Source: a virus. Taken from it: a DNA stretch of 64,000 nucleotides. Of this stretch, positions 20,858 through 60,955 are shown piece after piece. The first letter of the stretch is position 1. Each line of letters starts with the position of its first letter. The DNA is taken from the IMG/VR virus record IMGVR_UViG_3300045538_000426, positions 1 to 64,000 of that record; one strand, given 5' to 3'. The notes under the pieces were generated by a model. That model was not told where the DNA came from. It searched no databases and saw only the letters and a program-made list of their open reading frames with translations. A program made the position numbers and the translations under genes.

Positions 20858-21628
20858 GTGGAATCTCCATGTAATACGACAAAAGTCTATCTTAGGCAAA
20901 TCAATAAGAGTATCGCCAAGGATATAATAGTAAAAAATCACTACAGCCACAAATGGACATTGTGTCAGGTAGCTTATGGAGTGTTTTTTAGGACTGATTC
21001 ACCGAACGATTTTTTTGACGAAAGTGAAGATAAATTAATTGGATGCCTCATTTACGGTCAACCGGTTGGTAGGAGTGCAGCTGCTTCTCTGTCGGATCTA
21101 TTGAAAATAGATGAAGTCTTTGAACTCACCCGTCTTTTCATTTTTGATGGATATGGTAGAAACATCGAGAGTTACTCCATAGCACAGTCATTCAAACTTT
21201 TAAATCGGGATTTTCCACGAATAAAAGCAGTATTGAGTTACGCGGATGGTGAACAAGGACATAACGGTGTGATATATCAAGCCACTGGTTTTCATTATCA
21301 AGGGAATTCCTCACTTGCTCTCATGCCTAACTTTAGTCTAAGTCTCGTCGGACCCCCAAATTACGAGTGGATGCACAGTCGGTCAGTTACGTCTAGGTGG
21401 AAAAGTTGCAACGTAGACCATCTGAAAAGATGTATAGGAAAAACCTTTTATAGAAAGAAAGAATCTACCAAACATAGGTATATAATCTTCATCGGAAGTC
21501 GAGTGGAGAAGAAAAAACTCCTAAAATCCCTAAAACATCCCGTTCTTCCATATCCAAAGTCGTCTCATCACGTCGATGAAATCGAGGAGATAATTGTTTC
21601 CACCACTAAATCGTCTGAGTTTTTTTAA
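20858..21628 (+). CDS. Mom-like GNAT-fold adenine-modification protein
   Basis: IVKNHYSH, LIGCLIYGQP, FELTRL, VLSYADGEQGHNGVIYQATGFHYQG match the Mom family as recalled; C-terminus KSSEFF. Confidence 0.8.
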   Translation: MESPCNTTKVYLRQINKSIAKDIIVKNHYSHKWTLCQVAYGVFFRTDSPNDFFDESEDKLIGCLIYGQPVGRSAAASLSDLLKIDEVFELTRLFIFDGYGRNIESYSIAQSFKLLNRDFPRIKAVLSYADGEQGHNGVIYQATGFHYQGNSSLALMPNFSLSLVGPPNYEWMHSRSVTSRWKSCNVDHLKRCIGKTFYRKKESTKHRYIIFIGSRVEKKKLLKSLKHPVLPYPKSSHHVDEIEEIIVSTTKSSEFF

Positions 21629-22430
21629 TATACAAAACCCAATCTTTATGAGACGGCCTGATGCCTTTAGTTAATCGATTTACATTTGGTTGGTTCAATG
21701 TGTATTTTTTTATAAAATCGTATTGTGTTCCTGTATACTCTTCTAAAGTTTTACGATTCTTAAATGTGTAGATCGATTTATCTTGCAATAATTTATTAGG
21801 TCTTCCTCTTAATACATCACTCAATTTTTTCTTAGTATCACTGCTTAGAGATTTTCCATAATTAAATCCGTTTTTTCCTGACAACGACTTACGAATTTTA
21901 TCCTTAGTTTTCTCGGAAAGAATTTTTCCGGTTTGACTCACAGACATTTTTTGTCGAGATTCTAATGTGTGGTTCCTCCCCAACATAGGGTGTTTGTGTT
22001 TGGTGTACCTTTTCCTTAAAGATCTGCCAATGGTTTTTTTCATTTCCTCTGTCATTTCTACTCTCCCCGACAAAAACTGTTGGTTATACGAGGAATATTG
22101 TTCGTTTTTTGCAATGTCCAAATATTTTTGTTCAACATTAACAACATCGTCAGATACCTCTATTATCGAAAATAAAAAAGAACTTTCTCCGTAATTATCC
22201 CAAGACCTTTGTAAGTGGATATTATCGTGTTGATGATGTCTTAATTCATAGACGTGATTATACCACCTATTTATAATATTTTTTGATCCACCGACGTAAT
22301 ACTTCCCATTAACGTTGTTAGTTATCTTGTAGACTCCGCTTATTTTTCCAATACCTTTCCATTCGTTTATTGCAAATTTCCTGTTTATTAGATATATAAT
22401 ATCGTTTGGATCTGTTGTTAGATTGTTCAT
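21606..22430 (-). mobile_element. free-standing GIY-YIG homing endonuclease with NUMOD3-like repeats
   Basis: SGVYKITNNVNGKYYVGGS.NI..RW..H, HDNIHLQRSW, and repeats HTLESRQKMS/LSEKTKDKIR/LSSDTKKKLS; ATG at 22430; TACTTATT box at 22474-22481 on the minus strand. Confidence 0.9.
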
Positions 22431-22560
22431 CGAGTTCTTTCTTGGTTCGGTTGAGTTTTTTTCTTCCCATGTCAATAAGTATTGAGTGATAACATAAAAC
22501 GTGAGAACTTTCAGTCTAAATAATGCCATTGAAACCTTTTTCTGACCATATTTATAGGAT

Positions 22561-23625
22561 ATGAAACAATTTGAACTCAAGAATCTCGTCCGTACATTGG
22601 TGGCCGAGGCCATAGCCGGTCACGAATCACACGACGAAATTCCTGACATAGAACCTTCCGGTGATGCCAAGAAAAAAGTCGAGGGGTTGTTTAATGGCAG
22701 CATGGTGGTATCTTTCACCGACATAGAGGAGATTGCATATAGTTATGTGAAAGATGTGGATCAAGCGGAATCTCTCCGTGAAGAACTTATTGAGTATGCC
22801 AAGACAATTTCCGAACCTCTCGGATATCTACCCGATTCACGGGGTGAATTTTTCATCCGTAGGCCAACTCACGGAGATCTCCAACGTCAATATGGCGATA
22901 AGCTCAAAAATCCAGCTCAGAAGGAATCGGAAGTCGATGAGATCAGAACATTGAATGAATCTAATTTAAATGCGTTCAAAAAGCTGATACGAGAAGTTGT
23001 GGAGGAAGTGAAATCGGAAAATGACAAATCCATCGAAGACGATATGCTTTCTGTGTTGAAGATGTTAAAGGAACACAATAAGAAATTCTCTTTCCGAAAG
23101 AACAAGATGGGAAATTATGACGTGGTGGGATGTTCTCCTACACAGATAGAAGTCAGGCCTATGTATATGGGATCGTATGATGTTATATTCATGGTTGATG
23201 GGACGGATAGGGAAAAGAAGTTGAGTTTGGATCTGAAGGGCGTGAAGGAGTTTATAAAGGGGAAACTCACCTCCAAGTCAGAAAATTATACAAAGACCGC
23301 ATTTAACAAAACGGCAAGTACCACGGAAGATGTTACAAAGAAAACCGCTGGATTGCCGGAAACTAAGCAGAACGACATTAAAAAAGTCGGCGACACTAAA
23401 AACGAAAACAAAGATCATAACGAAGCTGAAGTGAAGAAGGAAGAGGATATGCCGGATAAACCTCTACGTGAAGTCGGTGACGTGAAGAAACAGGATTCCC
23501 ATGACGATGACTCTGGTGCAAAATACAAATTTCCAAAACAAGACAAGGATGAAAAGAAACACGTTGTCAAGGGTGGTAAGGGAAAAGAACTAAAACTGTC
23601 TGCTAAAAAAATAGCCAAGAAGTAA
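22561..23625 (+). CDS. hypothetical late protein, highly charged
   Basis: 354 aa; TATTTATA box 4 nt before the ATG; LxE-type motifs (TLNES, LIREVVEE). Confidence 0.75.
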   Translation: MKQFELKNLVRTLVAEAIAGHESHDEIPDIEPSGDAKKKVEGLFNGSMVVSFTDIEEIAYSYVKDVDQAESLREELIEYAKTISEPLGYLPDSRGEFFIRRPTHGDLQRQYGDKLKNPAQKESEVDEIRTLNESNLNAFKKLIREVVEEVKSENDKSIEDDMLSVLKMLKEHNKKFSFRKNKMGNYDVVGCSPTQIEVRPMYMGSYDVIFMVDGTDREKKLSLDLKGVKEFIKGKLTSKSENYTKTAFNKTASTTEDVTKKTAGLPETKQNDIKKVGDTKNENKDHNEAEVKKEEDMPDKPLREVGDVKKQDSHDDDSGAKYKFPKQDKDEKKHVVKGGKGKELKLSAKKIAKK

Positions 23626-23645
23626 TTGGATTATTTTAATTTCGA

Positions 23646-23673
23646 TTGACGTATCCGATCCATGTGATATGAT
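23646..23673 (+). promoter_or_regulatory. sigma70-type promoter with extended -10
   Basis: TTGACG (23646-23651), 16 nt spacer, TG-a-TATGAT (23668-23673). Confidence 0.7.
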
Positions 23674-23681
23674 TGGTTGAG

Positions 23682-24641
23682 ATGAAAAAAACAATATCCG
23701 GTGATATACGTTCTAATCTAAAGTCGTGTAACCGACTTAAGCCTAAGTCTTTGGTTATAGACGACTTGAAATGGAAATACTTGTGTAGAAGTGTCCTCCG
23801 GGGAAAAAATACATTGTTGGTCGGTCCAACTGGATGTGGAAAAACTCTAGCTGCTCAATCCGTCGCTGATGTTTACGCTGAGGATTCTTCTTTCTTTTAT
23901 TTCAATTTGGGAAGCACACAGGATGCACGCAGCTCTTTGATTGGAAATACAAATTTCAACAAAGAATCCGGCACAATTTTCAATGAATCCACGTTTGTCA
24001 CTGCGATACGGAAAACTGGTTCAATAATTCTATTAGATGAGATAAGTCGAGCACATCCGGACGCGTGGAATATATTGATGTCGGTACTCGACCCCATTCA
24101 GAGATATTTACGGCTCGATGAAAAGCGGGATAGTGAAGTTGTCAAAGTAGCTGATAGAGTGACCTTTCTAGCTACCGCCAACGTTGGGAATGAATACACT
24201 TCCACTAAAATCATGGATAGAGCGTTAATGAATCGTTTCAGTGTAAAGATAGAGATGAATCCACTTGATAAAGAAAATGAATTGAAATTTCTTTTGGATA
24301 AATTTGGTATCTCCGACCCTACTGAAATTTCAATTTTAACATCATTGGTGGAAATTGCAGACCACACGAGGAAGTCGGTGAAACAAGAGGATACGTGCCT
24401 TTCGAACTTTTTATCGACTAGAGATAGCGTTGAAATGGCCGAACTTGTTATCGATGGTTTTTCTTTAACTGAAATTGCGGAGAATGTAATTTATCCTAAT
24501 TTTACTTCGGATGGTGGGACTGAAAGTGAAAGGACTTATATCAAACAGTTGGTACAGAAGTATGTTGTAGATACATCTCTACCAAGTCAACTGTTTGATA
24601 AGAAAGATATCAAAACTCCGAAGTCAGATGTACCATTTTAA
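23682..24641 (+). CDS. MoxR/CbbQ/CobS-like AAA+ ATPase
   Basis: GPTGCGKT, ILLDEISR, FLATAN, MDRALMNRF; ends SDVPF; ATG at 23682 preferred over TTG at 23673. Confidence 0.88.
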   Translation: MKKTISGDIRSNLKSCNRLKPKSLVIDDLKWKYLCRSVLRGKNTLLVGPTGCGKTLAAQSVADVYAEDSSFFYFNLGSTQDARSSLIGNTNFNKESGTIFNESTFVTAIRKTGSIILLDEISRAHPDAWNILMSVLDPIQRYLRLDEKRDSEVVKVADRVTFLATANVGNEYTSTKIMDRALMNRFSVKIEMNPLDKENELKFLLDKFGISDPTEISILTSLVEIADHTRKSVKQEDTCLSNFLSTRDSVEMAELVIDGFSLTEIAENVIYPNFTSDGGTESERTYIKQLVQKYVVDTSLPSQLFDKKDIKTPKSDVPF

Positions 24642-26765
24642 ATGAAAAAGCCGGTTTATTCCGATTTCTGGATGGGCGACGAGGGCGTTCATCAGGACGA
24701 ATCCGTTGAATATATTGAGTTGATACGGATGGCCCAATACAAGCGTGCCATAAGTAATTTCGTTAACATACTGACCGAACGTCGTATTCCTGTCTTGTTT
24801 AACACAGACAGCAAGAACGCCACTGATGGCGAGGTTGTCTATCTGTCGCCGAACATCAATAAGAAAAAAGACTTTGATATCGCCGTCGGACTTGCACTTC
24901 ACGAAGGAGCGCACATAGTTTATAGTGATTTTGTTATCTTACAGACGTTATGGCAGAGAACTCCCCGTGAACTCTATGACGTGGGTATTCGAAAGAATAT
25001 AGACAAGGCCAGAATTGTAAAATTGGTAAAAACCATGTTAAATTACGTGGAGGACCGTTACATTGACTCGTTGGTATATTCTTCTGCTCCTGGATACCGT
25101 GGATATTATATCTCTCTATACGATGCCTATTTTAATGTCAAAAACAATGAAAAGGTATTGAAGTCGAAGGTTTATAGATTCCCCAGTTTCGACGCGTATG
25201 AATTTCGTATCATAAATTTTACAAACGCGGGAACCGATTTAGACGCTCTACCTGATTTGAGAAACATTTATGATCTAATTGACATACCAACGGTTTTGAG
25301 GTTAAAAACTGCAGAAGACAGGCTCTCAGTTGCAATTAAAGTGTGTAAGTTAATACTGAAAAATATAGGAAAGCAACCAACTGATACTGGAGGAAATAAT
25401 AAAGGCAGTGCAAGCGGAACGTCGTCTCCAAAACAAAGTTCATCTGGTTCCACGGCGAAGATGGATTCCGACGAAGAACCTTCCGTTGAAAAGAACGAAC
25501 CGACCGGATCATTGAATCCTCCCGATGAACAAGGTGTGTCGGGTGAGGATGTGATTGGTGGAAATGACGTAGATACTGAGGTAGAACCGGAGGAAAAACC
25601 GAGTTCTTCCGATCCCGTCGACGAGGAAACTGGCAAGGGAGATACAAGCGAATTTACTGATGCTGAGGTGAAGGAAATGGAGAAAAATTTCAAACGCCAA
25701 CGCCGATTTGTGGATGGTGACGTGAAACGGGGAAAACTCTCTCATAGGCAAGCCGCTTCGGTTGACGCTATCGAAAGAAGCGGCATGGTTTTGGTGAGGG
25801 TAGGTAAGGAACTATCGGATAAGCCAGATTTTCGAGGCATCGAGTGTGTGGTTGTAAATAAACTCACAAATGAACTTATCGCAGACCCCGATTTCCCCCT
25901 TAGTAGAGGAATTCCATTAGCCATCGGGAAAGACGAGTCTCCGGTAGCTAAAGCCGTTCGTGATGGAATAGTGAAGGGTAGGATGTTGGGCCGTAGACTT
26001 CAACTGAGAGACGATGTAAGGGTCACTCGATACATGAGACAGCCAGTTGGAAAAATCGACCGCCGACTCATATCTGAACTCGGTTATGACGTAGCCAATG
26101 TATTTTATACATCTCATACGGACAAATTCAATGAGGTATTTTTACATATAAGCGTAGACGCTAGTTCATCCATGTCGGGGGTTAAGTGGGTTCGTGCTAT
26201 AACAACGGTTGTTGCCATTTGTAAGGCGGCTTCAATGATTTCTAATATAAGGGTATCTGTGAGTTTCAGAACCACTGTTCCGTCAGCTTTCACGGGACCG
26301 TCACCGTATGTCGTAATGGCTTACGATTCCAAGGTAGATTCGTTTAATAAGATAATTAGTCAATTCAAATATCTGGTGCCGAATAACACTACACCCGAGG
26401 GATTGACGTTTGAGGCTATCATGGAACATTTGCCGCCGAAGGTTTTTGGTGAAGATCGTTACTTTTTAAATTTATCTGATGGACAACCTTGTTATTCCTA
26501 TAGATCAAAAGAAAACGATGGAAACGCTGTGGATTACATCGGTGAAGTTGGCGTGGAACATACTCGTAAACAAGTGAATAAAATACGAGATATGGGATAT
26601 ACGATATTATCGTATTTCATCGAACAACCTAACACAGAATCAACTACCGTTCAACGCGTAGATTTTAAGAGAATGTATGGGAAATCGGCCTCTTTCATAA
26701 ATGTGGATAATGTCGTTAAGATCTCGAATACGTTGAATGCTATGTTTTTGGAAAAAAACGATTGA
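24642..26765 (+). CDS. vWA-domain partner with N-terminal HExxH metallopeptidase-like domain
   Basis: GLALHEGAH and NYVEDRYID; acidic linker; MIDAS motif SVDASSSMSG...TPEG...LSDGQP; starts immediately after the AAA gene. Confidence 0.85.
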   Translation: MKKPVYSDFWMGDEGVHQDESVEYIELIRMAQYKRAISNFVNILTERRIPVLFNTDSKNATDGEVVYLSPNINKKKDFDIAVGLALHEGAHIVYSDFVILQTLWQRTPRELYDVGIRKNIDKARIVKLVKTMLNYVEDRYIDSLVYSSAPGYRGYYISLYDAYFNVKNNEKVLKSKVYRFPSFDAYEFRIINFTNAGTDLDALPDLRNIYDLIDIPTVLRLKTAEDRLSVAIKVCKLILKNIGKQPTDTGGNNKGSASGTSSPKQSSSGSTAKMDSDEEPSVEKNEPTGSLNPPDEQGVSGEDVIGGNDVDTEVEPEEKPSSSDPVDEETGKGDTSEFTDAEVKEMEKNFKRQRRFVDGDVKRGKLSHRQAASVDAIERSGMVLVRVGKELSDKPDFRGIECVVVNKLTNELIADPDFPLSRGIPLAIGKDESPVAKAVRDGIVKGRMLGRRLQLRDDVRVTRYMRQPVGKIDRRLISELGYDVANVFYTSHTDKFNEVFLHISVDASSSMSGVKWVRAITTVVAICKAASMISNIRVSVSFRTTVPSAFTGPSPYVVMAYDSKVDSFNKIISQFKYLVPNNTTPEGLTFEAIMEHLPPKVFGEDRYFLNLSDGQPCYSYRSKENDGNAVDYIGEVGVEHTRKQVNKIRDMGYTILSYFIEQPNTESTTVQRVDFKRMYGKSASFINVDNVVKISNTLNAMFLEKND

Positions 26766-27525: not shown

Positions 27526-28710
27526 ATGAGTTCACCTAGCGATTTTTTTGATGTAGTGGAGTTTGATTACGATCTTGAGAAAAAGAAATTCATAGACAAT
27601 CTCAATTTCTTAAAAAACATGGATGTTCACGAACAGACATTCTATAAGAAGTGGTATGAATTACAATCTTATAATTCACTAATTTCAAATTCTACGTTGA
27701 CGAAGGCCAGTGTATGGAACGCATCTGATATTTTGGACGAAAAATCTACCATATCCGAGATTGAGGCTATGAATCCCACCATCGAACTTGTAAAAACAAA
27801 AGCTGATGAAAATCACTGGCTCATGCTTAGGTTGTTTTGTCACACGATGGAATTCAGTCAGACGCCCGGTAGATTTCTGAAATTTCTGATACACGACGGT
27901 TCGCCTGAGAAAAAGTATCTAGGTGGTATATCTGTGTCCAGTGATGTTATAGCTATAACCGACAGAGACAATTACATCGGATGGTCTTCTGAAAATCGAC
28001 TTAAGGGAAACAAAAGAATAAATAACAGTTCGATAGGTAGTTGTATAATGTCGACGCAACCGTTTGGTTATAATTTCTTAGGTGGTAAGTTGGGTGCGTG
28101 TCTTGTGACTACGGATGTTGTTCGTGAAACGTGGAAATCACAATATGACGCGGTGTTAGCCGGGATGACCACGACAAGTTTATACGGCAGTTTCAGTATG
28201 TATAATAGTCTAAAATGGTGGTATAAATGTGGGACTAGTGCTGGAAAAATCTCGATAAAGCCAGATGATTCTGTTTACGAAATTTGGCATCATTGGATTC
28301 AGAAGAACAAGCCAGCGGAATATGCAAAAATGATGACGCAGAAAGAGGGTGTATCAGGACCTGTCACAGGAGCAAAACAAAGAGTAATATCAACGGTGTT
28401 TAGTCAACTTGGAATAAAAGCGTCCGATTACGTTCACGGATTCCAACGTGGAACGTATTACAGCTCATTTTATGAAAATACTAGGGATTTTCTATGTGAC
28501 AAGATAACGGAAAATGAACTGGTTATGAAACCACTGTTCGCCGGCGACAAGAATTTGATTTTGGAATGGTGGAGGCCTCGTGCGATTGAGCGGTATAAGA
28601 AACTCCGTTCCGAGGGGAAGTTAAAAAGTGACGTTCTTTATTACAATGACATGATTGGAATGGAATACAACGAAGCAAAGGAGAGATATTTAAATGAAGT
28701 TGGAAGATAG
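27526..28710 (+). CDS. DUF4338/DruA-like GNAT-fold protein
   Basis: TPGRFLKFLI...YLGGISVSSDVIAITDRDNYIGW...STQPFGYNFLGGKL...TTTSLYG..SMYN; N-terminus SDFFD. Confidence 0.7.
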   Translation: MSSPSDFFDVVEFDYDLEKKKFIDNLNFLKNMDVHEQTFYKKWYELQSYNSLISNSTLTKASVWNASDILDEKSTISEIEAMNPTIELVKTKADENHWLMLRLFCHTMEFSQTPGRFLKFLIHDGSPEKKYLGGISVSSDVIAITDRDNYIGWSSENRLKGNKRINNSSIGSCIMSTQPFGYNFLGGKLGACLVTTDVVRETWKSQYDAVLAGMTTTSLYGSFSMYNSLKWWYKCGTSAGKISIKPDDSVYEIWHHWIQKNKPAEYAKMMTQKEGVSGPVTGAKQRVISTVFSQLGIKASDYVHGFQRGTYYSSFYENTRDFLCDKITENELVMKPLFAGDKNLILEWWRPRAIERYKKLRSEGKLKSDVLYYNDMIGMEYNEAKERYLNEVGR

Positions 28711-29098
28711 AAAATTAATCCAAATTGGAGAGGTCGGTAATGAATTTACGAGGTTCATTTCGTCAGCTGGGTTATCTATGGCCACCGGATACAATAGAAT
28801 CGTGTTCGGTGCTAGGGGACCATATATAGAATTCGATCCATCTCATATCATACATACAAACATCCATATACCCGAGAACCAATTGTTTAGGATAAGCGAC
28901 CCACGTATTTACTATATAGAATTTCGTAGTTGTGACGTGGCTGCTGTTAAGGTGTATTATCAGATGAGAACAGTCGCTTATGCTGACTATAAGATAGGAA
29001 TGTTCTACATATCTCCATTGGAACTACAATTAATGGGTGGAGAAAATGTTCTGAAACTTACCTCTGAAAACGAAAAGAGTAGAGAATTTTTTGAATAA
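28694..29098 (+). CDS. hypothetical protein with C-terminal KSREFFE motif
   Basis: RIVFGARGPYIEF...KVYYQMRTVAYADYKIGMFYISP; overlaps the end of the DUF4338 gene. Confidence 0.75.
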   Translation: MKLEDRKLIQIGEVGNEFTRFISSAGLSMATGYNRIVFGARGPYIEFDPSHIIHTNIHIPENQLFRISDPRIYYIEFRSCDVAAVKVYYQMRTVAYADYKIGMFYISPLELQLMGGENVLKLTSENEKSREFFE

Positions 29099-29102
29099 AT
29101 TT

Positions 29103-29957
29103 ATGAAAACCATTGATCTACAACCTAAAGAAATTGTTCCGATTATGGATCAGTTGAAACAACATAGTAAAGACGGTCTTGTGTTGTGTTTTGTCGGTGT
29201 CGGCAGCGCGTGGAGCAAGAGGAATGTCAATACAAGTTTAATTGTTGCAAAAAATGGGATAACAATCTTAGTTGATATCGGAAGAAACATCCCAGAGGAG
29301 TTAGCTAAGATGGGTGTGGATATGCTTGATTTTGACTACTACCATTTTACACACAGCCATTGTGACCACGTCGGCGGCGCGGAACAACTACTACTCCAGC
29401 TTCGTTATATCAAAAAGAAAAAGGCCAAGGTAATCATAACCAATGAATACCAACAGGTTCTTTGGAACGAAACCCTAAAGGGAGGGTGTGAGATAAATGA
29501 GGACGGTTTGCTTCGGTTTACTGATTTTGTTGAAGTCATTAGGCCGGATTGGATGGCCGGTCAACCTCGTGAAAAATATCACATCAAATTAGACGGTGTC
29601 TTGGAATTTGATATTTTTAGAACCTTTCATGTTCCTGGAAATGTAAATAGTTGGGAGAAGGCATTCTGGTCAACTGGTCTTATTTTGGATAAAAAAGCAA
29701 TATTCACCGCTGACACCAGGTTCGATCTTTCTATATTCGAACATCTTGAATTTGACGGAGTGGAGGCAATATATCACGATTGTCAGTTATCCGGCCCAGG
29801 TTCAGTTCACGCTACATACGAGGAACTCACTCGTCTCATGCCGTCATATAAAGAGAGGATGTTTCTCACTCATTACGGAGACAATTTCGAAAAATTCGAC
29901 CCACAGTCAGATGGCTTCCGTGGGTTTGCAAAGCCGTGGGTGGTATATAAATTCTAA
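29103..29957 (+). CDS. apyc1: Apyc1-like metallo-beta-lactamase-fold cyclic nucleotide phosphodiesterase (anti-Pycsar candidate)
   Basis: GVGSAWSKR, THSHCDHVGG, LWNETLKGG, TADTRFD, HDCQL...VHATYEEL and FLTHYGDN parallel the Apyc1 motifs as recalled (GTGSAFSKK, THTHADHIGG, LWNDSLKGG, HDCQL..GVHAS..EL, FLMHYGDN). Confidence 0.75.
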   Translation: MKTIDLQPKEIVPIMDQLKQHSKDGLVLCFVGVGSAWSKRNVNTSLIVAKNGITILVDIGRNIPEELAKMGVDMLDFDYYHFTHSHCDHVGGAEQLLLQLRYIKKKKAKVIITNEYQQVLWNETLKGGCEINEDGLLRFTDFVEVIRPDWMAGQPREKYHIKLDGVLEFDIFRTFHVPGNVNSWEKAFWSTGLILDKKAIFTADTRFDLSIFEHLEFDGVEAIYHDCQLSGPGSVHATYEELTRLMPSYKERMFLTHYGDNFEKFDPQSDGFRGFAKPWVVYKF

Positions 29958-30293: not shown

Positions 30294-30734
30294 TTGAAAC
30301 TGTTGATTTCAATTTTAGTTGGGTTGGTATGTTGGTTTCCTAAATGTATTCCGTTAGTCGCAGGACTGGCGGTTTACTTCATTTTGCGCCAGAAGTCTCG
30401 GATGGAAACTAATCTCTTAAATCAAGATGAGAACAATGTTAGATTTAGGTCTGACATTGACACTATCGCAACTAATCAATCAAAGTTAAACGACTCTTTA
30501 CGGACAGTCTCAGCGAAATCACACGATTCTAATGTCCGGCTCAAAGAAGATATAAGTTGTTTGAGAAACGAACTCCGTGTGTTAGAGTCTTCGTTGAAAC
30601 GAGTTAACTCAGATACCAATCATGGCACGACCAAAGAAGACATCCTCGGAAGACAGCGGCGATTCCTCAAAAGTATTGAAGGCAAAAACCCTGTTCGACC
30701 ACATCAATCAGATAAGAAACGTCAAATCACCTGA
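30294..30734 (+). CDS. putative membrane-anchored coiled-coil protein
   Basis: TTG start, hydrophobic N-terminus, coiled-coil; the 3' end overlaps the next gene by 113 nt, so boundaries are uncertain. Confidence 0.4.
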   Translation: MKLLISILVGLVCWFPKCIPLVAGLAVYFILRQKSRMETNLLNQDENNVRFRSDIDTIATNQSKLNDSLRTVSAKSHDSNVRLKEDISCLRNELRVLESSLKRVNSDTNHGTTKEDILGRQRRFLKSIEGKNPVRPHQSDKKRQIT

Positions 30735-31119
30735 TTATTTTGAGAAGTTAACCGACGGTGATAAAAAGAGTTTCAATCACTACATGATATGTAGGTTCTT
30801 GAGTATGGATCCTTCTTGTATATATGAAGCGTCGTACTTGAGTAAGGTATTTGATAAGATGGATAGCAAGTCGTTTTACAAAGTCTGTTGTGCGATTATT
30901 CCAAATGCTAGATATACACCGTATATAAAGAGTTCTCGTAAGAAGATAAATTCTGAATTGGTGGGATATATTGTTTCTAGGTTCAATGTAGGTAGTCATG
31001 AAGCGGAAGACTATTACAGAGTCTTGATTAACTTACCGACTGGATTAGAAACACTCGGGGAGATATGTAAGGGATATGGTAAGACGGATAAGGAGATAGA
31101 TAAAATTTTAAATGAATAA
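30622..31119 (+). CDS. clamp loader small subunit (T4 gp62-like)
   Basis: TLFDHINQI...KSFNHYMICRFLSM...YTPYIK...SHEAEDY pattern; clamp and gp44-like genes are present at 61-63 kb. Confidence 0.7.
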   Translation: MARPKKTSSEDSGDSSKVLKAKTLFDHINQIRNVKSPDYFEKLTDGDKKSFNHYMICRFLSMDPSCIYEASYLSKVFDKMDSKSFYKVCCAIIPNARYTPYIKSSRKKINSELVGYIVSRFNVGSHEAEDYYRVLINLPTGLETLGEICKGYGKTDKEIDKILNE

Positions 31120-34772: not shown

Positions 34773-34831
34773 CACTCACGCCCGATGAACAGGAAAAGGT
34801 CGTTGTGGACGAATTAATAAATTTTAACTAG
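34769..34831 (+). CDS. 20-aa mini-ORF between the two glycosyltransferase halves
   Basis: ATG overlaps the upstream TGA (ATGA); MTLTPDEQEKVVVDELINFN then TAG. Confidence 0.3.
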   Translation: MTLTPDEQEKVVVDELINFN

Positions 34832-34841
34832 ATAAAAACAT

Positions 34842-46495: not shown

Positions 46496-46544
46496 ATTAA
46501 AACAAATTCAATGGAAAAAATATAGGTATTTATTTGAGATTACT

Positions 46545-50101: not shown

Positions 50102-50102
50102 C

Positions 50103-50759
50103 ATGGCTAGAAAAATAATGGCAATAGGGGCACATCCTGATGATGTGGAATTCGGTTGTTCTGGTACTCTCGTTCGACATAAAGCTGACGGTGACTTCGT
50201 TTCATATGTGTGTATGACGGATACCGAATCCAAGGACGGTACGACTGGTGAACTTCTACGGACGTTGGAACAGAACCGAGAAGAGACATTGGCTGCCGCG
50301 TCGGTGATTGGTTGTGATTTTGTGGATTTTCTCCCGTTTAAAGATCTTCACGTTCCATTCTCATTTGACTCGGTGAGTATGCTTGAGAAGCTCATAAAAA
50401 AATATGACATAGATATGATTTATACTCACTGGGCCGGTGATGCAAATCAAGATCATATTTCTACATTTAGAACGACGATGGCCGCTGCTAGGTATGTTCC
50501 CGATGTGGTCTGTTATGAACAGATTCCCATAGCAAGGATGTCGGAAAATCAAATGGAAACGACGTATTACGTGAATATAACCGACCAATTTTCAACAAAG
50601 ATTTCGGCTTCCATGAAACACAAGAGTCAGATAGAGAAATACGAAAAACATGGTTTGGACGTTAGAGAGAATTTGGAAACGTTGGCTAAATTTAGAGGTA
50701 TACAAGCAAGATGTAAGTATGCAGAAGCATTTCACATCATTAAAATGGTGAAATCATAA
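50103..50759 (+). CDS. PIG-L family N-deacetylase
   Basis: IGAHPDDVEFGCSG, IYTHW.GD.NQDH, EAF. Confidence 0.92.
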   Translation: MARKIMAIGAHPDDVEFGCSGTLVRHKADGDFVSYVCMTDTESKDGTTGELLRTLEQNREETLAAASVIGCDFVDFLPFKDLHVPFSFDSVSMLEKLIKKYDIDMIYTHWAGDANQDHISTFRTTMAAARYVPDVVCYEQIPIARMSENQMETTYYVNITDQFSTKISASMKHKSQIEKYEKHGLDVRENLETLAKFRGIQARCKYAEAFHIIKMVKS

Positions 50760-50760
50760 T

Positions 50761-51840
50761 ATGAATATAGAATTCGACGTCACATTAAACTGCAATTTCA
50801 GTTGTTTGAATTGTAATCGACATAGCAATTTCAATTCGCTTGAAAATCCACACGACCACACCAAGTCAGCTGGCCTCAATTATTACGACAATACAAACGT
50901 ATCAATGAACGCGGTAGATAAGTTAATTTCCGACGTTAAGTTACATGGTGGTATAAAAAGAATCCATGTTATAGGTGGGGAACCGTTGACACATCCCGAG
51001 ATAGACAAGATAGTGGACAAGCTTCGTGATGAATTGTTGGGGTTGTATGTTCCCGATATTGTCATTATTTCAAATCTTCACCCGAAAATGATAAAAGCGG
51101 GAACATTGGATACCCCAAAACAAATTGTTCAAAACTTTCCATTTGATAGAATCGACACTATACAATGGGGATATACACCGTCGTTCTTGCCTGCTTTAAT
51201 GAAAGCTTTGGCTGATTTGTTGAAATCTACGGGGATGACAACCGATGTTTTATCTGATAAATTATCGGAGTTAGTCGTTCAAGAAGACCCAAATAAAAAG
51301 ACAACTGCACATGATATACTGTCTACTGTAAAGATGTTCAGGGGGATGCTAGTTTCTAACTTCACGATGTTAGCTGATAAATCAGACGTTCACAGATGTT
51401 CCCTTGTATCTCCATATGACTCTGGTCAAGAAATGATTCCACTGTGTAACATACCAAATAAATGTGGGACAAATTATTCATTCGATGGATACTGGCCGTG
51501 TTCGCAAGGTGCCGCGATAGCTAGGATGTTCAATCTCACTCAATATAATCGAAAAGACATACCGATGAAGTTTGAGGATTGGGGAGATGTTGATTCTAAA
51601 GGAAATGCTATTGTAAACTCGAAGTCAAATATGTGGGAATTGTGCAAACACTGTCAACTGTCTGCAAAAACCAAGATGTTAGAGAAAGACCATGGTAGAC
51701 CGATATCCATAAGTTATAGGAAGGCATTGGGTATAGAGGGAGATTCAAAGCCATCGTCTCCCCACGTTGTTCCAAGTCATAAGAAAAATCTAGCCACGTC
51801 GATATACTTAGAAAAGTGTGAAACTGAATGTAAATCCTGA
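50761..51840 (+). CDS. radical SAM protein
   Basis: CNFSCLNC (CxxxCxxC), IGGEPLTHP, additional C-terminal cysteines (CNIPNKCG, WPCSQG, LCKHC). Confidence 0.85.
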   Translation: MNIEFDVTLNCNFSCLNCNRHSNFNSLENPHDHTKSAGLNYYDNTNVSMNAVDKLISDVKLHGGIKRIHVIGGEPLTHPEIDKIVDKLRDELLGLYVPDIVIISNLHPKMIKAGTLDTPKQIVQNFPFDRIDTIQWGYTPSFLPALMKALADLLKSTGMTTDVLSDKLSELVVQEDPNKKTTAHDILSTVKMFRGMLVSNFTMLADKSDVHRCSLVSPYDSGQEMIPLCNIPNKCGTNYSFDGYWPCSQGAAIARMFNLTQYNRKDIPMKFEDWGDVDSKGNAIVNSKSNMWELCKHCQLSAKTKMLEKDHGRPISISYRKALGIEGDSKPSSPHVVPSHKKNLATSIYLEKCETECKS

Positions 51841-52762
51841 GTTCGGAATAGAACTAGCCCTAGCAGTTCCTTACGCTTACTGGTTACACCTAAACGGTGA
51901 ACTTGAATCTGTAACGACGTCCCGTGGAATGCGTCCCTTCTATTACTTCTGCAATGACGTCCGGGAAGATTATCAGACGAGAAGCATTGATAACGTAGCC
52001 GCATTGCAGAATGTGCCGAATCAGTGGATACACCACAATGCTATGGCTATAACAGGAAAAGATTATAGTGACATGACCTCCGAAGAACAGTCATCGGTGA
52101 ATGGCGTCCTAGATTATTCCAAGTGGTCACCCGTTCCATTCCGAGAACATTACAAAAACGAGGAGTTTAAGTTTAAGAAACCGACTGTTTTTATAACCAA
52201 TAAGTTCAACATAGAACACGGCGAACCTCCGATGGGATATTTTGATATAGAGTGTTTATATGAGATGTTCAAATATCTCACTGAGAAGGGATATACCGTC
52301 GTTTATAAAAGAGCCACGAATCGTGAGAAGGAGTTTTCTTTAGATTCAAATGAGGAGATGTCTCTCAGAGACGGTTACTTAGATATACAAGCTGATGTAG
52401 ACGGAGTCGGTGTTATGACGGATTTCCAATTAACAAAACACTTTGACGATGTTATTTTGGTGGATGACTTGGTCAGTAAATCTAAGTTATCATATAACGA
52501 AACTCAACTTAGAATAATGGCAAACTGTGATAAATTCATAAGTGTTTGTGGTGGGAATTCAATTTTGTCTTCCATGTTTGGTGGAACTGTGATAAGTTAC
52601 ATCCACAAAGGTAAGGAATTGAGAAAAAATTACTTTGGTGAGAACAGTTATTTCCGAAAGTTATCCGGAGCAAATGTCATCCCCGTAATAGATCCGGACG
52701 TTATGAAAACCGGCATTCACAATTACTCAAGCCTTAAATCCGCTATACTAACTAATTTCTAA
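51818..52762 (+). CDS. hypothetical protein, possibly glycosyltransferase-like
   Basis: EFGIELALAVPYAY...FISVCGGNSILSSMFG; locus context only. Confidence 0.45.
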   Translation: MKLNVNPEFGIELALAVPYAYWLHLNGELESVTTSRGMRPFYYFCNDVREDYQTRSIDNVAALQNVPNQWIHHNAMAITGKDYSDMTSEEQSSVNGVLDYSKWSPVPFREHYKNEEFKFKKPTVFITNKFNIEHGEPPMGYFDIECLYEMFKYLTEKGYTVVYKRATNREKEFSLDSNEEMSLRDGYLDIQADVDGVGVMTDFQLTKHFDDVILVDDLVSKSKLSYNETQLRIMANCDKFISVCGGNSILSSMFGGTVISYIHKGKELRKNYFGENSYFRKLSGANVIPVIDPDVMKTGIHNYSSLKSAILTNF

Positions 52763-52763
52763 T

Positions 52764-53936
52764 ATGAATATAAGCTTCATTCAACCCTCCCGTGATAATC
52801 TGAAATACCTGAAGTGGTCATACGCTTCTATACGAAAGAATCTCGCCAATAAGGAACATGAGATATGCGTCGCCGACGACTTCAGCCACGATGGCACAGA
52901 GGAATGGTGCAAAGAAATGGTCAAGTCAGACCCGTATTTTAAGTTTATACGAAATAATGGACCTACTCGATTGGGTCACACGATATTGTATGACAGACTG
53001 ATTAATGACGTTGCAACCAATGATGTTGTTATGATTTGGCACGCTGACATGTATGCGTGTCCCGGGTTGGATACGCAAATAGAGAACCATATCAAACCAG
53101 GTGTGGTCGTTAGCCTAACGAGGATCGAACCTCCTCTCCATCCACCGGGTCCAGAAAAGATAACCGCTGCCTTCGGAGAGGAACCGGAAGATTTTGACGA
53201 AGAAAAATTTCTAAAATGGTTTAAATTAGCAGTAACATCCTATAAAGATAAGACCACCGAAGGTATATTTGCGCCTTGGGCTATATACAAGAAGGACTTC
53301 CAATCTATCGGTGGGCACGATTCACTCTTCGCCCCACAATCCAAGGAGGATAGTGACATATTCAATCGATTTCTATTAAATGGATACAAGTTCATCCAAA
53401 CCTGGGAAGGATGTGTATATCACATGACATGTCGGGGAAGCAGATTTAACCCTACTCTCACGGAGGTTGGAAAGGAAAGTCAAGAGTGGTTGAAGCAGAA
53501 TAACCGAAGTGCTAGGAATTTTATAAGAAAGTGGGGGCACTTCGTTAAACACGACTCTTATATGAAGCCCATCGTTCCGAAACTATACAAAGTAGGGTTT
53601 GTGATACGTAATATAAACGACCCGATGTTATCTGTGCTCGAACCTTGGTGTGGAACTTTATATTCCGATGTTAATTATGACAAATATATAGAATCGGAAC
53701 AGCCTAATACCAAATTTGACTTGCGCTCCAAGTTAAAGAAGTTATCGGAAGTCGGAGATGATGATGTAACTGTGGAGTTTGATGCTAGGGAATTTACGAA
53801 CAATCATTTCAATTTAATATCAAACTTGTCGGATGTTGTAACCGAGACTGGTGAGCCAGGCACATTTGAGTTCTCCATATTTAAAATAACTATCAATTCC
53901 ACAACTTCTCGCGAACTGAGTCTCATAAAGTTATGA
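52764..53936 (+). CDS. GT2 family glycosyltransferase
   Basis: ISFIQPSRDN, CVADDFSHDGT, WHADMY, SIGGHD..F.PQ..EDSD, YHMTCRGSR. Confidence 0.88.
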   Translation: MNISFIQPSRDNLKYLKWSYASIRKNLANKEHEICVADDFSHDGTEEWCKEMVKSDPYFKFIRNNGPTRLGHTILYDRLINDVATNDVVMIWHADMYACPGLDTQIENHIKPGVVVSLTRIEPPLHPPGPEKITAAFGEEPEDFDEEKFLKWFKLAVTSYKDKTTEGIFAPWAIYKKDFQSIGGHDSLFAPQSKEDSDIFNRFLLNGYKFIQTWEGCVYHMTCRGSRFNPTLTEVGKESQEWLKQNNRSARNFIRKWGHFVKHDSYMKPIVPKLYKVGFVIRNINDPMLSVLEPWCGTLYSDVNYDKYIESEQPNTKFDLRSKLKKLSEVGDDDVTVEFDAREFTNNHFNLISNLSDVVTETGEPGTFEFSIFKITINSTTSRELSLIKL

Positions 53937-56682: not shown

Positions 56683-59211
56683 ATGTATCAAAACATTTTC
56701 GTAGATAAAAAGAGTGAGACGGTTTTCATATGGGATGATAAATTGGGTCTTATTCAAATTCCAGTCGACCAAGCAACTTACGCCTATCGTAGGTGTTCCG
56801 GCGGACGTTACCGTTCTCTATACGGCGATGAATTGGAAAAGATTTCTAAGTTTTCTCCACGGGATCCATCTCTATTTGAATCCGATGTCCCATTAACCAC
56901 TCGTGTTTTAATAGATGCATATGAGGATTCAGATGAACCATCAACCGGCCACACGACGCTTTTCTTGGATATAGAAATAGATGTCACCGACGGATTCTCT
57001 ACACCGGAGGATGCTGGAAACGAGATAACGGCTATTGCTATATATGACGACATCACGGCGAAATATACGGCGATGATTCTTGATAAACAGATGCGGGTTA
57101 CCGACTCCCAAAAAGACGGTGTCTCTGTTCTTCGATTCGACAATGAAGAGTCGCTTCTCTCTCATTTTTTGACAAAGATAGAGGAAATCAGACCAACGAT
57201 AATAACCGGTTGGAACGTGGCTCAATATGATATGCCATATCTGTTCAACCGAATTACTACTGTTTTGGGGCGGAGAAGTGCTCAACGGTTATCTCCCATT
57301 AATATCGCTTATGTAAACCCCCGTGAAGGAGAAGTTGTTCTCGCTGGCGTGTCGGTTCTCGATTATTTGATTCTATATAAGAAATTCATCGGTAGAAATG
57401 AATCGAATTACACACTCGGTGCCATTGGAAAACGAGTGGTTAAGATGGAAAAGATAAGTTACAGTGGAAATTTACAAGACTTGTTCAATTCCGATATTAA
57501 TCGTTACATTGAATACAACCTAAACGACGTTCAGATAGTGGTTGCGTTGGATAAGAAGTTGAAATTTATAGATTTGGCTAGAAACGTGTGTCATACGGGA
57601 CATGTTCCATATGAATATTTCGGTATGTCAAGTCGTTATATCGAAGGTGCGATGTTACTTTATTTGAGAAGGACCGGATTGGTCGCTACGAATAAGTCAT
57701 TGGAGGGACAGGCCGACTTTGCAAGACGAACTGAGGAGTCGGAAGAAGGGTTTGAAGGAGCATACGTCAAGGATCCTGTTCCGGGAAGATATGATTGGGT
57801 ATATGACTTGGATTTAACTTCCATGTATCCGAATATCATGATTAGTCTCAACATCAGCCCGGAGACGGTCATTTCCAAAGTAGAAGATTGGAATGTAGAA
57901 CGGTATTTGAAAGGTGACTACAAATCTGTGAAAATGGGTGGGTCTGAATACGACATTGTTGATTTCAAGAAAATGATGGATGAGAAAAAGTTCTCTATCG
58001 CTTCAAATGGTGTAATTTATAGAAACGATAAGCCGGGATTGATACCGGCCATCCTTATAAAATGGTTCGATGAACGAAAATCCCTCCGTAAGCTCGCTAA
58101 GAAATATGCGGAGGACGGTGATATGGAGAAACATGAATTTTACGACAACCGACAACGTGTTCAGAAAATTCTACTTAACAGTGCATACGGTGTGTTGGGA
58201 CTTGAGGTATTTCGTTTTTACAACAAAGATAACGCGGCAGCAGTAACACTTACGGGTCAGGATATAATCAAGACCACAAACAAAGCCATCAATCTATATT
58301 ACAAAAACATATTGAACGTAGACAATGATTATGTGGTGTATGTCGACACCGATTCCGTATTCGCTTCAGCCGTTCCAATCATTGAACATTCTATGCCGGA
58401 GGTAGATTTGAAAGACGATGTTCAGATGACCGCTGCTATTCTGAAAGTTGCTGGTGAAGTTCAATTATTCGTCAACAAGTTTTATGATGTGATGGCTAAG
58501 AAGTTCTTTAATATAAGCACTCATCGGTTTGATATCAAACAAGAGGTTATTTCAAAGACAAGTTTTTGGTTGGCGAAGAAACGATACTGTCAGTTGATTA
58601 TAAACAAGGGAGGTCTTCCCGTGGACGAACTTGAAGTTAAGGGGTTTGACGTCGTTCGGACAAGTTTCCCCCTCGTGTTCAGAAAGTTCATGAATACGTT
58701 TCTGATGGGTCTGCTTAATAAGGTAGAACAACGCGTGATAGATGATACCATCGTAAAGTTTCTGGAAGAGATAAACACGTTGTCTATTTTGGATATGGCA
58801 AAAAGCACATCCGTAAAGTTCGTGAGTCTTGATAAAACAAAGAACTATGACCCCACATCACGGATTCCGTTTAACACGGTATTGGGAACGCCCGCTCAAG
58901 TCAAAGCCGCGTTGATGTATAATGATTTGATTGATAAATGGGGATTGGAAAAACATACTCAAAAGATATTCAATGGTCAAAAAATCAAATGGGTGTATTT
59001 GAAACAGAATGAATACGGAATCGATGCTCTCGCGTTTAAGGCTGACGGAAATGATTCGAAAGAGATATTGAGTTTTATAGATACCTACATAGACAGATCA
59101 GCGATGTACGACCAAGAACTGAAGACCAAACTCCAGGACTTTTACGCTGTATTGAAGTGGCAGTATCCAAGTTTGGAGAGCCGTAAAGCAGAAGAGTTTT
59201 TTAGTTTTTGA
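56683..59211 (+). CDS. polB: family B DNA polymerase (T4 gp43-like) with 3'-5' exonuclease
   Basis: Exo motifs FLDIEID, GWNVAQYDMPY, YNLNDV; polymerase motifs DLTSMYPNI, KILLNSAYG, YVDTDS, KKRY; tail RKAEEFFSF. Confidence 0.96.
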   Translation: MYQNIFVDKKSETVFIWDDKLGLIQIPVDQATYAYRRCSGGRYRSLYGDELEKISKFSPRDPSLFESDVPLTTRVLIDAYEDSDEPSTGHTTLFLDIEIDVTDGFSTPEDAGNEITAIAIYDDITAKYTAMILDKQMRVTDSQKDGVSVLRFDNEESLLSHFLTKIEEIRPTIITGWNVAQYDMPYLFNRITTVLGRRSAQRLSPINIAYVNPREGEVVLAGVSVLDYLILYKKFIGRNESNYTLGAIGKRVVKMEKISYSGNLQDLFNSDINRYIEYNLNDVQIVVALDKKLKFIDLARNVCHTGHVPYEYFGMSSRYIEGAMLLYLRRTGLVATNKSLEGQADFARRTEESEEGFEGAYVKDPVPGRYDWVYDLDLTSMYPNIMISLNISPETVISKVEDWNVERYLKGDYKSVKMGGSEYDIVDFKKMMDEKKFSIASNGVIYRNDKPGLIPAILIKWFDERKSLRKLAKKYAEDGDMEKHEFYDNRQRVQKILLNSAYGVLGLEVFRFYNKDNAAAVTLTGQDIIKTTNKAINLYYKNILNVDNDYVVYVDTDSVFASAVPIIEHSMPEVDLKDDVQMTAAILKVAGEVQLFVNKFYDVMAKKFFNISTHRFDIKQEVISKTSFWLAKKRYCQLIINKGGLPVDELEVKGFDVVRTSFPLVFRKFMNTFLMGLLNKVEQRVIDDTIVKFLEEINTLSILDMAKSTSVKFVSLDKTKNYDPTSRIPFNTVLGTPAQVKAALMYNDLIDKWGLEKHTQKIFNGQKIKWVYLKQNEYGIDALAFKADGNDSKEILSFIDTYIDRSAMYDQELKTKLQDFYAVLKWQYPSLESRKAEEFFSF

Positions 59212-59510: not shown

Positions 59511-59515
59511 GATAA

Positions 59516-59881
59516 ATGATTATGAAAATGCCAAATGCAATTCTTATAAATAAGACCGATTCTTCCACTGGAAAAAGGTGGAATGTAGTTTACATAAAAA
59601 CCGGTGTGGAGACTTATACTCACGTTGGTTCGGAATATGTAAAGACAGATGACATCACAAACTTTGACCCATTTGTAAATTGGTTGGATTATATACCCGA
59701 TAAGGAATGGGTTCATCCTGTGGTAGCCACTCCGTCTAATAATGGAGGTTGGAATTTATGTGCATTCGATGGATTCCACAACGCCACTTACAATGGGAAA
59801 GATACTACATTGGATTTCTTGTATAGTAACAATCTTCTATTTAAAATGTTCGATAAACTTCTGAAATCGTATGAAAAGTGA
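59516..59881 (+). CDS. hypothetical protein
   Basis: 121 aa ORF in operon orientation. Confidence 0.6.
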   Translation: MIMKMPNAILINKTDSSTGKRWNVVYIKTGVETYTHVGSEYVKTDDITNFDPFVNWLDYIPDKEWVHPVVATPSNNGGWNLCAFDGFHNATYNGKDTTLDFLYSNNLLFKMFDKLLKSYEK

Positions 59882-60083
59882 CTTGCTGCATGCGTGTTTG
59901 CCACCTGATAGGGATGAAATTTATAGGTTATTAGATCTGTTTGAAAACGCCAAATACACGGAAAATTATATTGTTTCGTCGGTGATGAAACATTTTAGAG
60001 GAAGATGTAACCCTGTATTAGTGAGGGAGATTGTGTCGGAATATCTTGCTGCCCGCCCACGGCAGAAAATAAGAATAGTATGA
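59871..60083 (+). CDS. small protein resembling the GatB/YqeY C-terminal tail
   Basis: YIVSSVMKHFRGRCNPVLVREIVSEYL compared with the GatB pattern FFVGQVMK.TKGKANP..V.E.L. Confidence 0.5.
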   Translation: MKSDLLHACLPPDRDEIYRLLDLFENAKYTENYIVSSVMKHFRGRCNPVLVREIVSEYLAARPRQKIRIV

Positions 60084-60955
60084 ATTACAGAAAATTACTT
60101 CCGTTTCACGATGACGTTAAAGTCATGACGCAGTTTGGCATGCTTCCTCTTTCCGTGATGGAGTTTTCCAATGATGATAAATGGGACATGGCTTATTTTA
60201 AACAAGACGATTCCGAAAAGCGAAGAAGCGACGATTGTGAGTATCTTTCCGGATTGGGGATGAGCGAGTTTAGCAGTGCTATCTGTGAATTTATTGTAAA
60301 GTATTGGAGTTTGGAGAATGCCAACGTCGTTGACCCGTTCGCCGGGCGTTCAACTAGAGCCATAATAAGTTCAAAGTTGGGTAGGAATTACCAAGGTTAC
60401 GAAATTTCACCACACACTTTCAATCGTAGTTTGGAACAATACAAAGTCGCGGGGGTAAATCCATTGCTTCATTTGTCAGATGGTCGGTATATGTTAGAAA
60501 CCGAAAATGACTTCGCCCACCTCGTCATGACGTGTCCTCCGTATGGATCGATCGAAAAGTATGAGAGTGTCCCGGGACAATTAAGCGACATTAGAAAATA
60601 CGACGAGTTTCTCTCTAACATAAGTGTTTGTATATCCAATATATACAGAGTTTTAAAGCCAGGAGGGTTCTGTTGTTGGGTGGTAGCTGATTGGAGAGAT
60701 GGTCATGGATACCATCAGTTCAGTAACGACAGCATTCAATTGTTTAAAATGAACGGATTGATACCTCACGACACGGTTATTATAAAGAACAATTCTCCAT
60801 TTGCCGCACTTCAAGCGGGCAAGGCAGCTGCTAAACGGATAACCTCAAAGACACATGAATATCTATTGGTCTTCCGCAAGGAAGGTGAGCTGAATATAGA
60901 CGGATTAAAACTAACGGAAATAAACAAATCGGCAAATGCTTTTTTTGAATTATGA
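60080..60955 (+). CDS. DNA amino-methyltransferase-like protein (N4mC/N6mA fold)
   Basis: VVDPFAGRST (motif I), LVMTCPPY (motif IV variant), VLKPGGFCCWVVADWR, HEYLLVFRK; tail KSANAFFEL. Confidence 0.85.
   Translation: MNYRKLLPFHDDVKVMTQFGMLPLSVMEFSNDDKWDMAYFKQDDSEKRRSDDCEYLSGLGMSEFSSAICEFIVKYWSLENANVVDPFAGRSTRAIISSKLGRNYQGYEISPHTFNRSLEQYKVAGVNPLLHLSDGRYMLETENDFAHLVMTCPPYGSIEKYESVPGQLSDIRKYDEFLSNISVCISNIYRVLKPGGFCCWVVADWRDGHGYHQFSNDSIQLFKMNGLIPHDTVIIKNNSPFAALQAGKAAAKRITSKTHEYLLVFRKEGELNIDGLKLTEINKSANAFFEL

Follow-up and report, generated by a model that had tools for sequence, protein, structure and literature searches.

Peptides that bind sliding clamps are well known, and the accepted clients of phage clamps are proteins of replication, repair and late transcription. 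In phages T4 and RB69, the C-terminal tail of gp43 is a peptide of the PCNA-interacting protein (PIP) box kind, lying in a hydrophobic pocket of the gp45 clamp (PDB 1b8h), and T4 RNase H carries a PIP motif at its N-terminus (PMC3012046). For gp33 and gp55 of T4 the motif is a C-terminal LDFL, and the listed partners of PCNA include DNMT1 and Lig1 (PMC9690074). The T4 ligase contacts gp45 through an internal LDFLF loop (PMC6212786). Mom of phage Mu is a Gly-tRNA-dependent GNAT enzyme that makes N6-carbamoylmethyl-adenine post-replicatively on double-stranded DNA; Gly-tRNA-dependent N6-adenine acylation was demonstrated for Mu Mom and two mined homologs, in a study in which clamps are unmentioned (PMC13219725). 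The DUF4338 domain has been termed a GNAT domain (PMC10853773). In our study, a Phe-Phe (FF) pair was found at or near one terminus of seven proteins encoded by the first 64 kb (64,000 nucleotides, the window) of one viral genome, a single contig of 122,969 bp (IMG/VR record IMGVR_UViG_3300045538_000426; 166 open reading frames, ORFs, genome-wide). The pair is probably a PIP-like clamp-docking peptide that is common to the DNA polymerase and to a set of DNA-modifying enzymes.

The window contains about 40% G+C, and nearly every gene is on the plus strand. Its family B DNA polymerase (PolB) is of the T4 type; the nearest cultured phage by PolB was found to be the Microcystis phage Mel-JY01 (43.6% identity), followed by T4-like cyanophages (about 29% identity). 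No nucleotide-level relative of the window was found by megablast among 50,697 phage records, and the clade bearing Mom and DruA-like proteins has no cultured member. The genome G003, an IMG/VR record of 365 kb rated 100% complete, encodes a PolB 54% identical to that of the window. The proteins with a terminal FF and the clamp machinery are as follows.

20858-21628, plus strand: Mom-family GNAT DNA modifier; C-terminus ...TKSSEFF with FF at 21620-21625; 23-residue tail at nucleotides 21560-21625
27526-28710, plus strand: DruA/DUF4338-like (GNAT) protein 1; N-terminus MSSPSDFFD with FF at 27544-27549
28694-29098, plus strand: 134-amino-acid protein of no known family; ends ...EKSREFFE with FF at 29087-29092; overlaps at its start with the end of DruA-like protein 1
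30622-31119, plus strand: gp62-like small clamp-loader subunit; phrog_225 (9.4e-14) and a weak PF16790 match
31726-32490, plus strand: DruA/DUF4338-like (GNAT) protein 2; N-terminus ...NGDVFFD with FF at 31759-31764
32487-33815, plus strand: GT4-type glycosyltransferase; MNEFFE from the ATG at 32487, with FF at 32496-32501
56683-59211, plus strand: T4-type PolB; ends ...RKAEEFFSF with FF at 59197-59202
60080-60955, plus strand: N6/N4 DNA methyltransferase (circularly permuted PF01555); ends ...NKSANAFFEL with FF at 60941-60946
61129-61872, plus strand: PCNA-fold sliding clamp of 247 amino acids, from a predicted structure; proposed docking hub
61891-62847, plus strand: gp44-like AAA+ large clamp-loader subunit; phrog_168 (1.1e-74), PF00004 and PF13177

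The Mom, the 134-amino-acid protein, PolB and the methyltransferase were found to share the C-terminal pattern K-[S/A]-x2-3-FF-x0-2. The four C-terminal and three N-terminal sequences quoted by a first-pass annotation of this DNA were all reproduced by ORF translation, and its family labels for Mom, PolB, the methyltransferase and both DUF4338 proteins were borne out by Pfam matches. Mom matched PF25680 over residues 10-234 (5.9e-43, 147.3 bits, cut-off 27.1) as well as phrog_1384, and PolB matched PF00136, PF03104 and phrog_262 (4e-170). The methyltransferase matched PF01555 (1.2e-20, 74.9 bits, cut-off 26.7) with the profile segments permuted, positions 143-216 being placed ahead of positions 2-110. 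DruA-like proteins 1 and 2 matched PF14236 with 3.8e-26 (92.4 bits) and 1.8e-22 (80.3 bits), respectively, at a cut-off of 27. The GT4 enzyme gave Atlas feature matches at 0.99 to viral Glycos_transf_1 clusters. The 134-amino-acid protein had no Pfam or PHROG match, and the Atlas search gave sub-threshold matches only.

The strongest evidence that the terminal pair is a motif comes from its conservation, as judged from the sequences of homologs. The single common motif proposed by the first-pass annotation proved to be conserved in the alignments of Mom, the methyltransferase, the 134-amino-acid protein, DruA-like protein 1 and PolB. Among the IMG/VR homologs of Mom, those with identities of about 50% or more have the ends ETFF, NPFFG, NQFFG, TSFF, KFYE or RFYG, and the linker ahead of the pair was found to differ among them in both sequence and length, with indels; F255 was invariant in the alignment of 26 Mom sequences (A2). 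Mom homologs of about 40% identity or less were without the pair. For the methyltransferase, with 120 cluster representatives at 51-93% identity, an aromatic pair was present in the last 8 residues of 116, as FF in 64, WW in 27, FW in 24 and YF in one, and was preceded by polar or acidic residues. Seven of eight relatives of the 134-amino-acid protein (54-84% identity) end in [D/E]FFE, and the eighth contained a read-on extension after the motif. In other lineages, another small protein with a tail of the polymerase type, 135-140 amino acids long and adjoining PolB, was found to end in ...KEFFDFETK or ...SEFFQFS (L101:9144-9566, L102:6756-7172 and L123:777-1184, the last on the minus strand).

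At the N-terminus, an aromatic pair was found in the first 14 residues of 116 of the 117 full-length homologs of DruA-like protein 1 (62-100% identity), with a variable lead of 1 to 6 residues ahead of it. The orthologs of DruA-like protein 2 start with ...GDTFFDI, ...SDNFFEI, MSNFFDF or MSVEVSFFDI. The N-terminus M[S/N][D/E]FFEY of the GT4 enzyme was kept in three relatives, which is weak evidence because these relatives are 84-89% identical. The PolB tails of at least 10 relatives at 44-79% identity contained EFFSF, EFFGF, QFFDFS, NFFDFGG, NFFNF, DQFFG and LERFF, and the PolB of Mel-JY01 ends in KFFNFK.

The frequency of the terminal pair was examined by comparing all 166 ORFs of the genome with shuffles. 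FF within the last 4 residues was found in 5 ORFs against 1.14 expected (P=0.005), and FF within the last 5 residues in 6 ORFs against 1.52 expected (P=0.0035). Two additional ORFs with a C-terminal FF lie outside the window, one of 497 amino acids ending in YVDFF and one of 187 amino acids ending in SVFFWKL. The 497-amino-acid ORF (...NYVDFF, genome 117622-119115, minus strand) matched phrog_2319, of unknown function, and no Pfam family; it is a possible further carrier, with a single distant relative as its only match. The 187-amino-acid ORF has a hydrophobic tail that is kept in the genome G016, and it was judged a chance case, probably of a different motif. The enrichment of terminal FF was marginal in the genomes G016, G018 and G006 (P=0.025 to 0.07).

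The motif was also found to recur in G003, on enzymes that are not orthologous to those of the window. The Mom ortholog of G003 ends in ENQFFG, and so does a second Mom subfamily that is only 25% identical to the window Mom. A PF01555 methyltransferase of G003 ends in NRFFS; it has no BLAST similarity to the window methyltransferase, and the two belong to different permutation classes. The PolB of G003 also carries a hydrophilic terminal FF, and an N-terminal FF was present in both of its DruA-like proteins and in an ATP-dependent DNA ligase starting with MSDFFDD. Among the PolB, Mom and PF01555 genes of G003 the motif was found in 4 of 6, against a background of 1.05% (P=1.8e-7), and in 2 of 4 when only non-orthologous genes were counted (P=6.6e-4). 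Its presence on these non-orthologous enzymes suggests independent acquisitions and counts as support for a common function. G016 and G018 contained the same carriers as G003, and in G018 a second, divergent Mom located between PolB and the clamp ends in RQFFDI.

The pattern across records also speaks for the docking reading, as the tailed Mom and this PolB were mostly found together. Of the records with a tailed Mom, 8 of 10 also hold this PolB, whereas 4 of 5 records with an untailed Mom are without it, two of these being at least 94% complete; the fifth contains only a distant PolB with 29% identity. In Mel-JY01, a polymerase-like tail was present only on PolB and on a hypothetical protein of 171 amino acids (...DLFNFFNCH, PP395634.1 111496-112011), and none of the annotated DNA-modifying enzymes of that phage, including its DNA methylase, contained the motif. 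The distant PF01555 relatives in cultured phages were mostly without a terminal pair, and no terminal motif was found in those of phiCTP1, CWou-2020b, phage G and HCTV-2. A large protein of the Flavobacterium phage VK58 (KY979247.1, with the CDS ending at position 1521 of locus L246), with a distant PF01555-like region, ends in ...ATLTLF, which resembles a bacterial pentapeptide that binds the beta clamp; this is a weak lead from a single case. A GT2 homolog of G006 ending in NKFYDTI was counted as chance, as the window ortholog is without such an end.

The position of the pair relative to the catalytic domains was compared with that of PIP-type peptides, which combine a conserved aromatic pair with a flexible extension outside the catalytic domain. 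The alignment profile of 26 Mom homologs matched Mu Mom (PDB 8bv8, E 6e-16), and the 232-residue chain of Mu Mom, ending in ...YPK, was aligned to residue 233 of the window Mom; therefore, the last 23 residues of the window Mom are an add-on. In the tailed PF01555 methyltransferase of G003, the match spans the full profile and stops 12 residues ahead of the NRFFS terminus. The PF14236 match of DruA-like protein 1 begins at residue 61, behind the N-terminal FF. An extension outside the catalytic domain was thus found in Mom, in the G003 methyltransferase and in DruA-like protein 1, and an aromatic pair (FF, FY, FW or WW) was conserved in the homologs of Mom, the methyltransferase, the 134-amino-acid protein, PolB and the DruA-like proteins. 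Residue 14 of DruA-like protein 2 aligns to residue 68 of DruA-like protein 1, so that the two FF pairs lie at non-homologous domain positions and have only their closeness to the N-terminus in common. The C-terminal tails of the window read S-R-K-A-E-E-F-F, T-T-K-S-S-E-F-F and N-E-K-S-R-E-F-F, with K-[S/A] in place of the canonical PIP positions.

Several observations weigh against a clamp-docking motif. The glutamine at position 1 and the L/I/M at position 4 of the canonical PIP box (Qxxhxxaa) are absent from the window tails; with neither a canonical Q nor an aliphatic residue at position 4, the motif is to be called PIP-like, on account of the aromatic pair only, and not a canonical PIP box. 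An excess of terminal FF over a shuffled background had been named as a check by the first-pass annotation; it held at the C-terminus (P=0.005) and failed at the N-terminus, where FF in the first 15 residues was found in 5 of the 166 ORFs against 4.8 expected. Since the N-terminal FF is at chance by count, this part of the motif is rescued only by its conservation in homologs. The raw count of terminal FF was not significant in the AT-rich genome G003 (8 against 5.4 expected) or in Mel-JY01 (4 against 2.4 expected). The tail was missing on some paralogs, being present on two of three Mom proteins and one of two PF01555 enzymes in G003, on two of four Mom proteins in G018 and on one of three in G006. 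The type of pair did not strictly co-vary between the methyltransferase and PolB, as SKWW was found beside ERFF. The interaction of the T4 alpha-glucosyltransferase with gp45, known from an older in vitro report and the only earlier claim that puts a phage DNA-modifying enzyme on a clamp, was not reproduced in a 2025 preprint (bioRxiv 10.64898/2025.12.06.692756) and is now disputed; the closest published precedent is therefore weak. That case resembles the present one in the idea of a phage DNA-modifying transferase that would ride the clamp during replication. It differs in that no common terminal motif supports the idea in T4, whereas the window has a conserved one that is common to the polymerase and several enzyme families and is known from the comparison of sequences.

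The raw counts in G003 and Mel-JY01 and the N-terminal count in this genome are also what would be expected if the tails had no common function and were products of chance or composition, or structural elements inherited within each family; furthermore, the motif was defined only after it had been seen. Such a reading is already disfavoured, and we give it very little chance. Although adjoining residues and linker lengths differ among the homologs, the pair persists in Mom down to about 50% identity, in 116 of 120 representatives of the methyltransferase and in 116 of 117 of the DruA-like protein; it lies outside the domains, and it recurs on non-orthologous enzymes of a distant relative (P=7e-4 to 2e-7).

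The ORF at 61129-61872 had no Pfam, PHROG or PDB-sequence match, even with a profile of 41 sequences, although the clamp family comprises at least 392 homologs. A model made with AlphaFold2 on the alignment of these 41 sequences (A1) reached a predicted local distance difference test (pLDDT) score of 93.1 and a predicted template-modelling (pTM) score of 0.90; a single-sequence model (pLDDT 37) was discarded. The top Foldseek matches of the model were yeast and human PCNA (E about 2e-14, probability 1.0, template-modelling score 0.75), so the protein is predicted to have a PCNA fold, with two topologically repeated beta-alpha-beta domains. The first-pass annotation had proposed a gp45-like clamp and loader. 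The clamp fold and the loader (phrog_168) stood, the fold being more like PCNA than gp45 by the Foldseek ranking; no sequence-family match was found. The clamp gene is flanked by those of the methyltransferase and the gp44-like loader, as in Mel-JY01. The gp62-like subunit is located inside the Mom/DruA module, about 30 kb from the gp44-like subunit and between the two DruA-like genes, and it has an equal position in G003.

The polymerase of the same genome carries the motif, ending in EEFFSF, with FFxF or ERFF in its relatives. The likening of the PolB tail to the clamp-binding gp43 tail of T4/RB69 in the first-pass annotation agrees with the literature, as the two are the same kind of peptide (PMC3012046). 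A conserved terminal motif would fit any common receptor equally well, and a motif without the canonical Q and L positions might dock to a different shared hub, such as the single-stranded-DNA-binding protein, the clamp loader, the helicase/primase or a scaffold of the replication compartment. We consider another hub unlikely, as the PolB motif lies exactly where gp43 of T4/RB69 has its clamp-binding tail, the clients in the relatives, including DNA ligase, are classic clamp clients, and the gene for a PCNA-fold clamp neighbours those of PolB and the methyltransferase.

The genome was also found to encode a ClpP homolog (PF00574, 8e-28; genome 79413-80090, minus strand). Short terminal motifs are typical degrons, and the terminal FF could be a tag for degradation or timing that restricts how long the DNA enzymes last, with the phage ClpP and a host unfoldase as one possible reader. 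The motif is found at either terminus, however, and on the replicative polymerase, which is required throughout replication; the precedents among clamp clients account better for the set of carriers, and we know of no degron of the terminal-FF form. A role as a degron is thus very improbable.

The proposed docking peptide resembles the peptides of the gp45 clients of T4/RB69 in several ways. Both are short, hydrophobic or aromatic, and borne on a flexible extension; within one phage, both occur at the tail of the family B polymerase as well as on further DNA enzymes, at either terminus; and the phage encodes its own clamp, presumably of the trimeric type, with a gp44/62-like loader. It differs in that acidic or polar residues followed by FF are found at the extreme end, instead of LDFLF or LFDMFDF. 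The window clamp is closer to PCNA than to gp45 by the Foldseek ranking, without a sequence-family match, and the candidates of the window (Mom, the methyltransferase, the DruA-like GNATs and GT4) are not among the accepted T4 clients. The eukaryotic and archaeal PIP-box clients of PCNA are alike in their aromatic-pair core, usually at the terminus of a disordered tail, and in their PCNA-fold receptor; they include a DNA methyltransferase (DNMT1, for replication-coupled methylation) and DNA ligase I, with an N-terminal PIP box. In those clients the canonical Q and L/I/M are present, whereas the window tails contain K-[S/A] instead; the host of the motif is a bacteriophage and not a cell, and the modifications would serve anti-restriction and not epigenetic inheritance. 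The window Mom matches the family of Mu Mom over the whole core, whereas Mu Mom is untailed and Mu is without a clamp of its own.

A PIP-like peptide on the polymerase and on the modifiers would imply replication-coupled modification. In the proposed mechanism, FF with the acidic or polar residue ahead of it would act as a short linear docking motif of the PIP-box/gp45-binding kind at the end of a flexible extension. PolB, Mom, the PF01555 methyltransferase and the 134-amino-acid protein have this extension at the C-terminus, and the two DruA-like GNATs and one GT4 at the N-terminus. The receptor would be the PCNA-fold clamp that the phage itself encodes (61129-61872): the aromatic pair would plug into its hydrophobic pocket, and the gp44-like (61891-62847) and gp62-like (30622-31119) subunits would serve as its loader. 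Clamps remaining on the new duplex may then carry or recruit the modifying enzymes, and adenine acylation by Mom, methylation and the DruA-like activity could be laid down behind the fork before host nucleases meet unmodified DNA. The clamp as the receptor, the coupling of modification to replication through docking, and the chemical products are steps that we infer.

The genes downstream of Mom were found in the order GIY-YIG/NUMOD3 (minus strand), MoxR-type AAA+ ATPase, a 707-amino-acid partner, DruA-like protein 1, the 134-amino-acid protein and an Apyc1-like phosphodiesterase, followed by the gp62-like loader subunit, a deoxynucleoside-monophosphate (dNMP)-kinase-like protein, DruA-like protein 2 and GT4. 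This order was largely kept in G003. The neighbouring genes and others that may act on nucleotides are as follows.

21606-22613, minus strand: GIY-YIG and NUMOD3 homing-type endonuclease, converging on Mom; its last codons overlap the codons of the Mom tail (21606-21628)
23673-26765: MoxR/CbbQ-type AAA+ ATPase (PF07728) and a 707-amino-acid partner without family match; the pair is kept in G003 (52% and 40% identity)
29091-29957: Apyc1-like anti-Pycsar metallo-beta-lactamase (MBL) phosphodiesterase; PF23023 (1.5e-32), directly after the 134-amino-acid ORF
31112-31729: dNMP-kinase-like protein; phrog_139
35871-36560: dUTPase-fold protein; PF00692
Genome 90559-91743, minus strand: thymidylate-synthase-family protein of 394 amino acids; a 266-position profile match over about 390 residues

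The stretching of a 266-position profile over about 390 residues indicates a large insertion in the thymidylate-synthase-family protein. The dNMP-kinase-like, dUTPase-fold and thymidylate-synthase-family genes are candidates that could feed non-canonical nucleotides. A bifunctional-type NMNAT/Nudix protein and a nicotinamide phosphoribosyltransferase (PF04095, PF18127) were found at genome 120457-122942 as a phage NAD+ salvage pair.

The island at 34230-53936 contained Polysacc_synt_2, Epimerase, DegT, WbqC, PIG-L, radical SAM, GT2, GT4 and GT8 genes, which are ordinary nucleotide-sugar and glycan families. No ORF with a terminal FF and no link to DNA was seen in these roughly 20 kb, and the island is therefore not counted within the feature. 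The first-pass annotation was right that the other glycosyltransferases lack the terminal motif, which holds for all ORFs of the island and leaves the GT4 at 32487-33815 as the only one with it. Its proposal of one hypermodification system spanning 20858-60955 was overstated, because the island is untagged and some Mom and methyltransferase paralogs in the relatives are untailed.

A literature search found no description of tails of this kind on Mom or on PF01555 or DruA proteins, nor of clamp-binding motifs on phage DNA-modification enzymes. Clamp-binding peptides as such are already known; new here are putative clamp-type tails on DNA-modifying enzymes. A broader proposal, for which we regard the chances as even, is that a terminal aromatic pair serves as a clamp-client code in a large clade of uncultured, T4-related phages from freshwater and the sea, and that its carriers would act on nascent DNA from a PCNA-like clamp. 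If so, a DNA-directed, replication-coupled role would follow for the Mom acyltransferases, the two DruA/DUF4338 GNATs, the GT4 enzyme and the 134-amino-acid protein. The code would also provide a way, from sequence only, to pick DNA-acting enzymes from phage dark matter and to mine clamp clients in metagenomes. DruA is the unexplained signature protein of the Druantia defence, and the motif would give a testable lead on it. Hypermodification and methylation would be physically coupled to the fork in a large phage clade, as a phage parallel to DNMT1 on PCNA, and this coupling would account for the protection of phage DNA against restriction from its synthesis onward.

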